Of a stretch of 64,000 nucleotides of DNA, positions 55,761 to 60,881 are shown piece by piece. The notes beneath the pieces were generated by a model. The model was given only the letters and a program-made list of their open reading frames with translations, had not been told where the DNA came from and searched no databases. This DNA comes from an uncultured Candidatus Rokubacteria bacterium (GTDB lineage: Bacteria; Methylomirabilota; Methylomirabilia; Rokubacteriales; CSP1-6): NCBI GenBank assembly GCA_963747235.1, contig CAVVEU010000004.1, forward strand, positions 32,001-96,000. The letters run 5' to 3'. Every line of letters begins with the position of its first letter. The first letter of the stretch is position 1. Both the position numbers and the translations under genes were made by a program.

Positions 55761-55798
55761 CCCCTCTCCCCTCTGGGGAGAGGGCAGGGTGAGGGGGG
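55761..55798. repeat. REP-like palindrome family A, copy 4 (intergenic, abuts next start codon)
   Basis: CCCCTCTCCCC-tct-GGGGAGAGGG-CAGGGTGAGGGGGG. Confidence 0.9.
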
Positions 55799-55802
55799 TT
55801 CT

Positions 55803-56753
55803 ATGCCGACCATCAAGGTGCGAGACCTGGCCTGGGTGAGGCTGCGGGCGCCGGACCTGGACGCGATGGAGGAGTTCCTCACCCACTTCGGCCTCACGCG
55901 CGCCGCGCGCACGCCGAAGGCGCTCTACATGCGCGGGACCGACCCGGTCCACCACCTCCACGTCACCGAGAAGGCGGACGACGCCGGCTTCGTGGGCTTC
56001 GCCTACCACGCGGCGGGCGAGGGCGACCTGGCGCGGGTGGCGACGGCGCCCGGCGCCTCCGCGGTCGAGGCGATCGACGAGCCGGGCGGCGGCCGGCGGG
56101 TCCGCCTGCGCGAGCCCAACGGCTACCAGATCGAGGTGGTGTGGGGCCTCGAGGCGCCGGCGCCGATCCCGGTGGACTACACCCCGATGAACACCGGCGC
56201 GGAGCCCCTGCGGCGCGCGGGGACGCTGATGCGGCTGCGCAAGTCGCCCACCCCGATCAAGCGGATCGGCCACGGGGTCTTCGGCACGCCGCGCGTCGTC
56301 GAGACCGCACGGTGGTTCCGCGACACGCTGGGCTTCATCGGCTCGGACGACGTGTACGTGGGGACCAAGGACCACATCATCGGCTCGTTCAACCGCTGCG
56401 ATCGCGGGGACGAGTACGTGGATCACCACACGATGTTCTGCGTGATGAACGAGCGGGCCGGCATGAACCACGTCTCGTTCGAGGTGCCGGACGTGGACGC
56501 GGTGTTCAAGGACCACGAGTACCTGGCCGGGCTCGGCAAGTACGAGCACATGTGGGGCGTGGGGCGGCATCTCCTGGGCAGCCAGGTCTACGACTACTGG
56601 GCCGACCCGTGGGGCCGTGTGCACGAGCGGTGGGCGGACACCGACCGGCTGAACGCCCGGAGCGGCTCCAATCTCCTGTCCGCGGAAGAGGGGCTGGTGA
56701 GCCAGTGGGGCGAAGATCCACCGGAGCGATTCCTCCGGCACGTGACGACGTAG
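55803..56753 (+). CDS. Two-domain VOC / extradiol dioxygenase-like protein
   Basis: RIGH, DHHT, NHVSFEV, WGVGRHLLGSQVYDYWADPWG.VHE. Confidence 0.88.
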   Translation: MPTIKVRDLAWVRLRAPDLDAMEEFLTHFGLTRAARTPKALYMRGTDPVHHLHVTEKADDAGFVGFAYHAAGEGDLARVATAPGASAVEAIDEPGGGRRVRLREPNGYQIEVVWGLEAPAPIPVDYTPMNTGAEPLRRAGTLMRLRKSPTPIKRIGHGVFGTPRVVETARWFRDTLGFIGSDDVYVGTKDHIIGSFNRCDRGDEYVDHHTMFCVMNERAGMNHVSFEVPDVDAVFKDHEYLAGLGKYEHMWGVGRHLLGSQVYDYWADPWGRVHERWADTDRLNARSGSNLLSAEEGLVSQWGEDPPERFLRHVTT

Positions 56754-57112
56754 CGCCGCTCGCGCGGCTGCGGCGCATCTGCCTCGCGCTGCCGGGGACC
56801 GGCGAGAAGGTCTCCCACGGCGAGCCCACGTTCTGGGTGGGCGGGCGCATGTTCGCCACCTTCGACAACCACCACCACGGCGCCCCGCACGTGGGCGTCT
56901 GGCTCGCGATGCCGCTCGGCGCGCAGGAAGCCCTCGTCTACCAGGACCCCAAGCGCTTCTTCGTGCCGCCCTACGTGGGCACCGCGCGGCTGGGTCGGCG
57001 TGCGCCTCGACGGGCGCCCGAGCTGGAAGGGGGTGAGAAGGTAGTCCGCGAAGTCCTACGCCTTCATCAAGAACAAAAACCCTCTCCCCCGGAGGGGGAG
57101 AGGGCAGGGTGA
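56750..57112 (+). CDS. MmcQ/YjbR family protein (start unclear; frameshifted)
   Basis: LRRICLALPG, SHGEPTFWVGGRMFA, RFFVPPYVG, GWVGVRLD. Confidence 0.75.
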   Translation, partial: VAPLARLRRICLALPGTGEKVSHGEPTFWVGGRMFATFDNHHHGAPHVGVWLAMPLGAQEALVYQDPKRFFVPPYVGTARLGRRAPRRAPELEGGEKVVREVLRLHQEQKPSPPEGERAG

Positions 57113-57117
57113 GGGGG
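57080..57117. repeat. REP-like palindrome family A, copy 5
   Basis: CCCTCTCCCCC-gga-GGGGGAGAGGG-CAGGGTGAGGGGG at a convergent gene junction. Confidence 0.9.
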
Positions 57118-57132
57118 CGCGCAGCCAGCCCG

Positions 57133-57881
57133 CTACGACCAGACCTCCGTCGGGAACGGCAGCCCCTCGAGGTCGGCGTCGGTGAGCGGCGCGTCCTTCT
57201 CCACGCCGCAGCTCGTCGAGGAACCAGTAGATCTGCCGCAGGTGCTGGGCCGAGTGCCACGTCGTGCGCTCCATGAACTCGGGCGCCGACTGCGGGCCGT
57301 AGTAGGTGCTCACCTCGCCGTCGCACCAGCCGGGCCGCGCGAAGTAGGCCCGGAGCCGCTGGCGGACCGTCTCCCCGTAGCGCGCCACCGCGTCGCCGTC
57401 CGCCATCTCGGGCGGCGCGTTCTCCTCGAACCACGCCCCGTCGAGGTTGCCCTGCTCGCGCGTGTCCGCGTACGAGGCGGCGACCCGGAACACGTGGAAG
57501 CCGAGCTGGTGCACGGTCCGATCGCGCCCCGGGTACTTCATGCCGAGGTGCTCGCGCGGCACCTGCCGGATCGCCCGCTGGGTCGCGTCCAGGACGACGT
57601 CCATCCGCTCGGCGAGCTGGGCCGGGCTCAGCTTCTTCGGCGCGCGGTAGCGCACGCCCGACCAGCTCGGCCAGCGCCTGCGGGTTCCAGCCGTGCACGA
57701 TGCGCTCGCCCACGATGGTGGCGGGCACGCGCATCACGCCGAACGCTTCGAGGTCGGCCCGGCGCTCCGGCTGAGCCTCGACGTCGAAGCCCTCGAAGGC
57801 CACTCCCCATGACGAAAGCAACTCTTTCGTCTTGGCGCAGGAGCTTCAGCCCTGGCGGTAGTAGACGCGCGCGCGGTCCAT
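57133..57881 (-). CDS. Glutaredoxin-like (UxxC)-DinB fusion selenoprotein (UGA at 57846-57848; frameshifts ~57655 and ~57205)
   Basis: MDRARVYYRQG*SSCAKTKELL...RVPATIVG...HGWNP thioredoxin fold, followed by a DinB-like domain with GFHVF and WHSAQHLRQ. Confidence 0.82.
57807..57835 (-). promoter_or_regulatory. Putative bacterial SECIS hairpin
   Basis: CCA-A-GACGAAAG-AGUUG-CUUUCGUC-A-UGG starting 10 nt after the UGA. Confidence 0.7.
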
Positions 57882-57931
57882 GGCCTTCCCACTATACCCC
57901 GGCCCGCGGTGATCCTGGAAGGCGGGCCGGG

Positions 57932-59292
57932 TCACTCCACGGGCCCGATGCCGCGGCGGCGGAAGATCCGCCTGAGGATGGCCGCGTGCCGCCCTCGGTA
58001 GAGGTTGCGGTCGGCGTCGAGCATGGACCGCGCCCCGCGCGCGAAGGTGGTGAAGCCGTCGAGCTGGAAGTGGCTCTCCACGATGATGCGATCCGCCACG
58101 GGCCGCCCGGTTGCCTTCCAGATGTCCCACAGCGTGGCCGACCAGATCTGGCCGTTGTCGTGCTCGTCGGCCCGCGGGCCGTGGTCGAAGCTCTCGTAGG
58201 TGAGGCGCGAGTCGACCCGCCGGACGCAGGGCGGGTTGCCGTCGCCGAGCGCGCCGTCCCAGCTCATCACCGCCTCGACGTACGGGTCCCGCTTCTTCGC
58301 GGCGAAGAAGCTGGCCGCGAAGTAGTCGCCGAACCCTTCGCCCATCGCGGCCGCCTCCGGTGACTGGCCGAAGTCGGGGCAGATGGCGTCCTGGAGCGCG
58401 TGCCCGAACTCGTGGAGCACGGTCTCGCCGTCCTCCGCGTCGTCCACGTCGCCGGTGCCGAAGGTCAGGGTGCGCTCGCCCGGGCTGTACCACGAGTTGT
58501 CGTCGCGGGTGCCGCGCGCGTCCACCTCGAGAGGCCGCCGGAACAGGCGACGCGCACCCCGGTAGCCGAGCGTCTCGAGGTAGGCGATGGCCTCGTTCAC
58601 GTGGTAGTAGGCCGAGGCCTCCTCGAAGCCGGCGCGGAAGCGCGGCACCGAGAAGTCGAGCCGCGCGCTGCGCAGGCGCTTCGTTGTCAGCCGCGTGGTG
58701 ACCCGCCGGCCGTCCAGTCGGCTGTTGCCACGCAGGCCGGTGAGCTTCACGTCGACGTAAGCGGTCGCCGGCGGGCGCCGCACCCGGTCGGCCTCGTTGA
58801 GCGGCTCGAAGTCATGCGCCCGGGCCATCGGATTCGGCAGGAACACCATCGCGCGCCCCGTCGCCTCGGCGAGGTTGTCGTACCGGCTGAGGATGCTGCC
58901 GGTCACCGCGTGCACGTAGGTGATGACCTCCGAGCGGGGCCTGGTGCGGTGGATCCGCACGCGCCAGGCCGGATGCAGCAGCCGCTTGGCCGGGTACCAG
59001 AGCAGCTCCGGCTTGCCGACCACCCACGCGCGCCCCCGGCCGCGTCCCCCGCCCGCGAACGCCGCCCGCACCGCCGTCTCGCCCGCGAGGCGGGGCTCCT
59101 CGGTCTTGCGGAGCACGTCGTCCGGCACAGCCCGGCTCTTCACCAGGTACACCCGCCGGTCGCCGATGTGCACGGTGACGTAGGCGCGGTGAATGCGGCG
59201 GCGGCGCCAGAGCTGCTGGAGGTGACGTGGCGGCCGGGGCCGGGCGCGGCGCACCCGGCGCGACGACCGCCGGAGCGCGTGACGCGCCGCAT
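57932..59292 (-). CDS. M36/M4-type zinc metallopeptidase (5' end frameshifted or uncertain)
   Basis: FTP/PepSY-like propeptide remnants, AYYH, DNSWY, VLHEFGH, GEGFGDY, EHDNGQIWS. Confidence 0.85.
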
Positions 59293-59305: not shown

Positions 59306-60881
59306 TCAGGACCGGGCGAGCCCGAACGCCTCCGCGTAGCGCCGCCACGCGTCCAGGTGGCTGCCGTACTTGCGGTGCCCCGCGGTGTGCTTGGCGGAGG
59401 CGAAGAGCAGGCGGTCGCGCTCCTCCGCGGTCGAGTGGCCGTAGTCGTCGAGCAGGCAGATGCCCAGCTCCTGGTTGTGCGGGTCGTTGCCCGCCTTGGC
59501 CGCGCCCACCGCGAGGGTCTGCAGCAGCGGCGCGCGGTCCGCGCCGTCGCGGAGGTAGGCGGCGACCCAGTCCATGGCCTCGAAGGCGCGCAGGCCGTCG
59601 AGCGCGCTGTCGAGACGCTTGAGCACTTCCGACGAGGTCAGCGCCGTCGGAGCCCTTGGGCGGCGCGATCTTCACCGGGTTGTTGTCCGGGGTGTGCTTC
59701 TGGTGATGCGCCGCGCGGGTGACGAAGGCGGCGGCCACGAAGAGGAGCTTGAGGCGGTGCGGGTGCTGGAACGTGTCGAAGAACCAGCGCACCGTGTTGC
59801 AGTACTCGTAGCTGTGCTGCGGCATCGAGTAGCCGTTGACGTCGCCCGTCTCGATGATGAGCTGCGCGGAGGCGAGCTGGATCGTGTCGATGATCTGGCG
59901 ATGACCCCGCCCGGCCTTGAGCAGCGCCACGAGCAGGTCGATGAAGGCCGGCTCCTGGCCGCTCAGGATCGCCTGCTGCAGCGCGAGCGACTCGACGGGG
60001 GTGAGCGCCGTGTCGTTGGCGAGCAGCTCGCGATCGCGATTGTCGAGCAGGTTCTGGACCACCAGGCAGCCCATCTCGTAGGTCGAGTACCAGCGGGGCC
60101 CCACCGCGATGTCGGGCACGCCCGCGTACAGGATCGAGTGCGCGTGCTGCCAGCCCACCGCGCGGGCCACCTCCACGGTGGCGCGGGCACGGTAGGACTT
60201 GTGCCCGGTGGTGTAGGAGCGGTTGTGCAGCACGCGGTCCTGCACGTCGATGAGGCCGGCGAACACGAGCTGGGCGAGCAGCGGGGTGCGCTTCGCCTCG
60301 TCGTCCACCGCCTCCTCCCACAGGCCCAGGAAGACGCGATAGGCGTTGATGACCTCGCCGCGCTGCACGAGCGTGAGCCACGTGTTGAGCCGCTCCGGCC
60401 ACGTGCCCTCGATGGCCAGCGGCTCCTGGTCCGGCCAGTGCACCTCGGGCAGGGGCGGCTTGCCCTCGAACTTGATCTCGTAGAGCCGCACGTAGTGCCC
60501 CGGCATCTTGCCGATGAGCTGGTTCCACGGATCGAGGCCCGTCGGCATGTACCAGATGGTCTGGGCGTAGGGCAGGTAGGCCAGCTCGGGCGGCATCAGC
60601 GGCATCAGGTCGAGGCTCGCGCGCGAGCTCAGCAGGCAGTGGTCGTTGTTGACGAACCGCGGCACGCCGTCGTCGAGGCGCTGGTGGTACGGCACGTGCG
60701 TGTAGGGCGCGTGGATGCGCACGATCTGGCCGGCCAGCTCGGCGAGCGGGACCTGCGCCCGCACCAGGTCGTAGAAGATGTCGCTGGCCGCCTTCTGATC
60801 CCGCTCGAGGATCTTGTTCTCGAGCCGCGCATAGGCAGTGCTGATCTCGGGACGCACGGACCGGTCGACGGAGGTGGCCAT
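59306..60881 (-). CDS. Uncharacterised ~520-aa helical repeat protein (frameshift ~59640)
   Basis: AAAGGAG RBS; strong codon bias; ORFs 58812..60881 and 59306..59626 join. Confidence 0.8.

Follow-up and report, generated by a model that had tools for sequence, protein, structure and literature searches.

A predicted selenocysteine-containing glutaredoxin–DinB fusion protein of Candidatus Rokubacteria and its truncated database relatives

The 64,000-nucleotide stretch analysed here (the window) comes from contig CAVVEU010000004.1 of an uncultured Candidatus Rokubacteria bacterium, and its reverse strand carries, at 57133–57881, a gene whose product is probably a genuine selenoprotein some 248 residues long, in which a selenocysteine (Sec) glutaredoxin (Grx) is fused to a DinB-type bundle, the window's copy holding two insertions that look like assembly errors. 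The prediction was made by comparing sequences: an in-frame TGA is conserved across related loci, distant homologues carry Cys at the same place, a bacterial Sec insertion sequence (SECIS) follows directly, and the genome encodes the machinery for Sec incorporation, all in agreement with an initial annotation that had proposed a hidden selenoprotein at this position. The Sec form of Grx–DinB is judged to be a real selenoprotein family, conserved across genomes and mis-annotated in a systematic way. The parts of the window copy, all on the minus strand, are as follows.

57133–57881 (-): whole Sec-glutaredoxin/DinB fusion gene, in three successive frames in this assembly, collinear with the unbroken frames, about 248 codons long, seen in relatives
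57879–57881 (-): ATG start codon, 11 codons ahead of the Sec codon
57846–57848 (-): in-frame TGA predicted to encode Sec, codon 12, first residue of a U-S-S-C active-site motif; present in 81/81 aligned sequences, with Cys in 50/51 full-length distant homologues
57803–57843 (-): predicted bacterial SECIS hairpin, with a minimum-free-energy fold, compensatory pairs and a dip in G+C
57660–57881 (-): glutaredoxin-fold (NrdH/YruB-like) domain, first frame; PF00462 at 44.1 bits, and structural matches via the AlphaFold model of a relative
57657–57659 (-): first extra base, GGG against one base fewer in six relatives, a +1 frame shift in the linker (DNA alignment column 237)
57210–57655 (-): DinB-type four-helix-bundle domain with three conserved His, second frame; PF12867 at 23.0 bits, and a Z of 15.5 for the relative's model against DR0053
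57204–57209 (-): second extra base, inside GCGGCG, a further +1 frame shift (DNA alignment column 687)
57133–57203 (-): conserved C-terminal tail ...DADLEGLPFP.EVWS and TAG stop (57135–57133), third frame; matched in relatives' frames, with G-L-P-x-P nearly invariant
57079–57105 (-): terminator-like G+C-rich hairpin of 12 pairs followed by a T run, TTTTGTTCTT, 27 bases past the stop codon

A Conserved Selenocysteine Codon

Read through from the ATG at 57881–57879, the first frame gives MDRARVYYRQG, the TGA at 57848–57846 and then SSCAKTKELLSSWGV, which bears out the reading MDRARVYYRQG-U-SSC-AKTKELL, with TGA at codon 12, of the initial annotation. The relatives read start at ATG or GTG, 9–16 codons ahead of the TGA. 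Species-representative genomes yielded 349 confirmed stretches, gathered by two peptide patterns of which one is encoded by the hairpin itself; when the best 80 of these loci were aligned with the window, all 81 sequences had the TGA. Third positions account for most of the variation in the codons ahead of it (TAC/TAT, CGC/CGG/CGA and GGC/GGT/GGG), an indication that translation of this stretch proceeds in the same frame.

A profile search of 1.84 billion representatives returned 1691 proteins at E up to 0.001. The top-scoring rows start at profile position 11 or later and are the Sec forms as cut by gene callers, and Cys counterparts were sampled as all 51 of the best 150 rows that match from profile position 1–4. 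C-x-x-C stands in place of U-x-x-C in 50 of these 51 full-length homologues (26/26 and 24/25 in two alignments), which places the TGA where the attacking Cys of a CxxC motif would be, just as had been proposed. The read-through comparison with related genomes suggested at the outset therefore came out in favour of a selenoprotein, with TGA kept in all 80 aligned loci, Cys in nearly all of the distant homologues and a continuous Grx–DinB frame.

The SECIS Hairpin

Directly past the TGA, the hairpin GACGAAAG-AGUUG-CUUUCGUC spans 57831–57811. Its core stem pairs 57831–57824 with 57818–57811 around the loop AGUUG at 57823–57819, and is prolonged by the extensions CCA/UGG (57835–57833 with 57809–57807) and CUCC/GGAG (57843–57840 with 57806–57803). 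When 57851–57790 was folded, hairpin and extensions together formed the minimum-free-energy structure (-25.6 kcal/mol, z -2.1), and the hairpin is thus present with both extensions that the initial annotation had drawn. Bacterial SECIS elements, according to a 2026 review, have a loop of 3–9 nt, an upper stem of 4–16 bp, a G in the first two loop positions, a distance from UGA to loop of 16–37 nt and a minimum free energy of at most -7.5 kcal/mol (PMC13188914). The window hairpin lies within all of these limits, with a 5-nt loop, an 8-bp upper stem, 22 nt between UGA and loop, and G then U at loop positions 2–3.

Comparison among 80 distinct sequences points to a structure that has been maintained. 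Cells expected to pair do so in 88.7% of cases, against 48.6–58.4% when the partners are slid by 1–3 columns; pair 79–89 occurs as A-U 40 times and as G-C 24 times, pair 78–90 as A-U 62 times and as C-G nine times, and the observed covariation score was reached by none of 500 shuffles. Folding and covariation, the two checks foreseen for this element, are consequently both in its favour. Across seven close sequences the longest invariant run, of 53 bases, covers the TGA and the hairpin. The remark that the hairpin is built from unusually AT-rich codons fits a G+C of 0.55 at 57800–57839, against 0.60–0.85 in all other 40-base steps scanned. An Rfam scan of 57000–58000 at E up to 10 gave four chance-level matches, none at the hairpin.

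Selenocysteine Machinery

All four genes for Sec incorporation whose presence had been left to a genome search (selA, selB, selC and selD) were found in the window's own genome above their cut-offs. The tRNA-Sec reaches 69.3 bits (cut-off 47) and is given the anticodon tca by ARAGORN; selA, selB and selD score 578, 365 and 228 bits, respectively. The tRNA-Sec, selA and selB genes lie side by side on contig C14, and selD lies elsewhere. Across the order, selA exceeds its cut-off in 37 of 41 genomes, the window's own included.

One Gene in Three Frames

The proposed fusion of Grx and DinB is supported by a continuous single frame in relatives. Seventeen of the 19 relatives' loci fetched hold one U..C-containing Grx–DinB frame of 249–251 residues, the other two being contig-end fragments; each frame runs from a few codons ahead of the TGA through U-S-S-C, the glutaredoxin fold and DinB to ...EVWS. 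Since a single unbroken frame some 248 codons long covers both domains in these 17 loci, the fusion is taken to be real. With the DinB fragment as query, a stop-to-stop frame of 235–237 codons that starts right after the TGA was found in 28/40 relatives' genomes.

In the window, the first frame loses sense past ...AELVG, a second, DinB_2-like frame takes over from about 57655 and carries the H...HxxxH motif that had been noticed there, and the final 23 codons, with the stop (57135–57133), fall in a third frame. The gene thus lies in three frames here, not two, and the initial annotation, which had invoked one indel near 57655, has to be amended: set against six close relatives, which lack both extra bases in a DNA alignment, two corrections are needed, at 57657–57659 and 57204–57209.

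Domains and Predicted Fold

The thioredoxin-type fold read past the TGA is matched by the Pfam glutaredoxin model PF00462 at 44.1 bits (cut-off 22.9); UxxC stands ahead of helix 1, and the cis-Pro (RVP) and HGWNP motifs named in the initial annotation are both there, the Pro of RVP being invariant in 31 sequences. All NCBIfam models fall short of their cut-offs. The highest-scoring is YruB (TIGR02196, 54.2 bits against 88.55), with the NrdH model TIGR02194 at 38.7 against 85.75, and the UXX-star glutaredoxin-like selenoprotein models also miss (NF041212, 33.3 against 66; NF041211, 20.8 against 100; NF047338, 22.3 against 97 bits). A Pfam scan of two Sec forms as they stand in the database found no glutaredoxin domain.

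An AlphaFold2 model of the intact protein of a close relative, built on 31 sequences, has a predicted local distance difference test score of 95.2 and a predicted template-modelling score of 0.90. Its residues 1–75 superpose on BC3987 (3zij) with a Z of 13.3 and a root-mean-square deviation (rmsd) of 1.1 Å over 73 residues, on NrdH (1h75) with a Z of 12.4, and on glutaredoxins too. In this model, Sec would be the first, nucleophilic residue of U-S-S-C, placed where helix 1 of an NrdH/YruB-like fold begins. Residues 80–230 superpose on DR0053 (6iz2) with a Z of 15.5 and an rmsd of 2.2 Å over 141/144 residues, so that the four-helix bundle of the DinB/YfiT superfamily is found in the model; Z is 13.6 against YfiT (1rxq), 12.1 against mycothiol S-transferase (8f5v) and 10.5 against BstA (5wk0). 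Solved structures gave single-domain matches only, and no chain with both domains.

Within the bundle, His127 is invariant and His207 and His211 (HxxxH) are at least 90% conserved; several Arg residues and the C-terminal GLPxP motif are also conserved across homologues. Three His are the usual metal ligands of the DinB/YfiT superfamily (PMC10950700), and on this precedent His127, His207 and His211 may bind a metal in the same way.

Distribution and Annotation

Judged by record titles, the 80 loci comprise 50 from Rokubacteria/Methylomirabilota, seven from Entotheonella/Tectimicrobiota and five from Binatia, the rest being scattered, and some of the scattered loci are probably mis-binned. Four loci (L047, L049, L050 and L053) are 90–93% identical to the rokubacterial gene and belong to metagenome-assembled genomes (MAGs) titled Limnocylindria, Nitrosotalea (an archaeon), Acidoferrum and Verrucomicrobiia; these four placements probably reflect mis-binned contigs.

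The expectation that standard pipelines would truncate the gene is borne out by its database relatives. Most of the best 120 have 222 amino acids, those with names being called 'hypothetical protein' or 'DinB family protein', and the one relative whose sequence was read (P0005) starts after the TGA. P0222 (721 amino acids) is a Cys form in which an extra N-terminal domain of about 470 residues stands ahead of the Grx–DinB unit; this domain may belong to the MmgE/PrpD family.

Table 1 of the 2026 review cited above names 119 prokaryotic selenoprotein families and has no DinB entry; the review lists an experimentally verified Sec-containing Grx (PF00462, UxxC) as well as a GST-like selenoprotein, and gives as the largest predicted bacterial selenoproteome that of a Methylomirabilota MAG with 63 predicted selenoprotein genes (PMC13188914). 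Sec-glutaredoxins are already known, as is the Cys-form Grx–DinB architecture, which is in databases under automatic names; the Sec form of Grx–DinB is unrecognised in the databases and literature searched. No description of a Sec Grx–DinB fusion was found in that literature, and the groundwater MAG survey of Deng et al. may list the protein. This survey, the source of the 63-gene Methylomirabilota MAG, reportedly covered 44,000 groundwater MAGs. The term 'DinB' has no occurrence in PMC13188914, and a term search of PMC13326102 gave no hit.

Relationship to Known Proteins

The redox domain of the window protein has the same fold as NrdH-redoxin, YruB and BC3987, and its G-W-N-P stretch resembles the NrdH motif. 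Unlike the window protein, the NrdH, YruB and BC3987 proteins carry CxxC, consist of a single domain and lack Sec. Known Sec-glutaredoxins are generally small, stand-alone and glutathione-dependent proteins. The window protein and the Sec-containing Grx listed in the review (PMC13188914) have the glutaredoxin fold in common; in both, Sec opens the UxxC motif and the UGA is followed immediately by a SECIS. The window protein differs in being NrdH/YruB-like by its best NCBIfam match, which lies below the cut-off, and in being fused to DinB. On the DinB side, DR0053, YfiT, BstA and mycothiol S-transferase have a four-helix bundle and three conserved His, the latter described for the superfamily (PMC10950700), as the window protein does, but they have neither a redoxin domain nor Sec and use a free low-molecular-weight thiol as co-substrate.

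Further counterparts are the Cys-form glutaredoxin–DinB proteins, which are named automatically as 'DinB family protein' or 'glutaredoxin domain-containing protein'. They have the same two domains, a C-[ST]-[SAG]-C motif and shared His, Arg and GLPxP positions; they differ in having Cys for Sec, in being 28–40% identical to the Sec form and in lacking the HGWNP stretch, and they come mostly from Pseudomonadota, judging from the few atlas members that carry a record. Canonical glutathione S-transferases (GSTs) show the same order, a thioredoxin-fold domain and then a helical domain, but their helical domain does not have the fold of the DinB part, and the likeness is one of arrangement only. 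Homology to GSTs was rejected on template-modelling scores of 0.25–0.36 at rmsd 11.5–16.3 Å and on whole-chain Z of 9–12 at rmsd 5–6.7 Å.

Alternative Explanations

Several observations weigh against a functional selenoprotein gene in the window. The sampling of loci favours SECIS-bearing forms, and 80/80 overstates the universality of the TGA; and in P0165, a full-length homologue, both Cys and Sec are missing from the site. The hairpin has a modest z-score, with 5 of 200 shuffles folding equally well; pairs changed on both sides number five, an unexceptional count matched by 124/500 shuffles, and kinship among sequences can beat shuffles without any structure. The DinB_2 model PF12867 gives the window fragment 23.0 bits and two database Sec forms 18.9–20.2, under its cut-off of 24.8, which two Cys forms exceed at 28.0 and 34.7 bits. 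The gene neighbourhood is unconserved and offers no hint of function, no neighbour gene being shared between the window and three distant loci (L077, L103 and L118). Finally, two frameshifts fall inside 750 bases, as they might if the family were a real selenoprotein family and the window copy a pseudogene, with true mutations for insertions and no full-length protein made. We consider this unlikely: the copy is otherwise intact, its DinB fragment being 95% identical to the closest relative over 151 residues ahead of the second insertion, and it retains every motif, the stop codon and the terminator. Among sequencing runs screened, the best contained 0.44 of the sampled words and none reached half, a result that favours neither reading. 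Single-base frameshifts of the same type also occur in genes unrelated to this one. A conserved gene upstream (59306–60881, minus strand, no Pfam match) is split in two frames by an extra G at 59644–59645, and the closest relative, L046, has an intact frame of 524 amino acids for it (981–2555); a selD locus lies in two frames (G000:C27:46033–46945) and a second selD-like locus in three (G000:C8:303114–303868), which points to frequent single-base indels in the assembly. Because the neighbouring gene and the two selD loci are frameshifted alike, the pattern suggests assembly and not selection, and the two insertions are most likely errors of an indel-prone assembly rather than mutations.

Two further explanations concern the TGA itself. 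That it is an ordinary stop, and the product a protein of about 222 amino acids beginning past it without the active-site motif or the 11 codons upstream, would agree with the length of most of the best 120 database relatives and with the start of P0005, yet strand 1, the redox motif and most of helix 1 would be missing from such a product. The aligned loci conserve the upstream codons in frame at the protein level, and in the model these codons account for strand 1; Cys forms run through the site without a break, and a conserved, covarying hairpin follows. Together these findings make an ordinary stop very improbable. An error-prone assembly might also have produced TGA from TGC or TGT by a base-calling error, or the UGA might be read by a near-cognate tRNA rather than as Sec. 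The errors seen, however, are insertions and not substitutions, the same TGA stands in 80/80 independent loci from many assemblies, and complete Sec machinery and a SECIS are present, leaving this explanation scarcely credible.

Possible Function

If the gene does encode a Sec-containing Grx–DinB protein, established Sec decoding suggests that SelB with Sec-tRNA(Sec) would bind the hairpin in the coding sequence just past the TGA, and that the ribosome would then decode the UGA at 57848–57846 as Sec. The selenol of U-S-S-C would act as the nucleophile and the Cys three residues on as the resolving thiol, as in other redoxins. The tethered selenol/thiol pair may have as its substrate a molecule bound at the DinB metal site, be it a thiol conjugate, a mixed disulfide or an electrophile, and a disulfide reductase system could re-reduce the pair, so that the protein would couple a selenol reductase to a thiol transferase. 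Alternatively, the pair could replace the free thiol used by other DinB transferases.

The thiol genes of the window's own genome, which is 88% complete, give weak support for such a replacement. Neither gshB nor bshC was found with the queries used, and MshD gave a weak match (20.6 bits), from which the idea gains a little. Of the four low-molecular-weight thiol pathways searched, the sole one hinted at is represented by an EgtB-like sulfoxide-synthase frame (G000:C33:66674–67870; 242 bits, below the cut-off of 360). We tentatively hypothesize, as a possibility that we hold to be doubtful, that a tethered NrdH-like selenol replaces the free thiol, which would make this the first DinB/S-transferase-like selenoenzyme, self-contained and GST-like in detoxifying or reducing its substrates, and widespread in soil phyla (Methylomirabilota/Rokubacteria, Tectimicrobiota and Binatia).

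The family would extend the prokaryotic selenoprotein list by a family-level entry and link selenium to the DinB superfamily, in which a chemistry has been assigned to a minority of members. In the databases searched, all Sec forms are N-terminally cut entries without an active site, and hundreds of records would be corrected by a family model. A first biochemical test could readily start from the natural Cys homologues. The locus is also an example of such genes being hidden or mimicked by indels in long-read assemblies, and each new family sharpens the picture of the Methylomirabilota selenoproteome.

Gene Neighbourhood and Other Observations

In the window the gene is flanked by genes for an M36-like peptidase, a YjbR-family protein and a glyoxalase-fold protein. 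At the three distant loci the neighbours are an M15 peptidase with an S-adenosylhomocysteine hydrolase, a hydantoinase with a zinc alcohol dehydrogenase, and a short-chain dehydrogenase/reductase with a potassium channel. A sigma-70 promoter scan found no site. Directly upstream, at 57932–59254 on the minus strand, lies the M36/thermolysin-like metallopeptidase gene, whose product carries HEFGH; relative L052 has this gene and the closest relative, L046, does not, and the neighbourhood thus varies even within the genus.

Further split frames were seen in passing. The main frame of the YjbR-family gene just downstream (56750–57112, plus strand) matches profile positions 1–58 of 88 only, and another frame there reads RGWVGVRLDGRP, a string typical of the YjbR family; this gene probably carries another indel. 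One frame of rpoB (G000:C24:133232–136003) matches positions 3–868 of 1238, and the remainder may lie in another frame, a possible further frameshift. The selA gene of relative G008, an assembly of few contigs, also lies in two frames. The G+C-rich palindrome CCCTCTCCCCC...GGGGGAGAGGG at 57079–57105 seems to recur at about 55770–55800 behind another gene, where it was seen as similar peptide strings in open reading frames, and may be a repeated terminator or an element resembling repetitive extragenic palindromes (REP-like).
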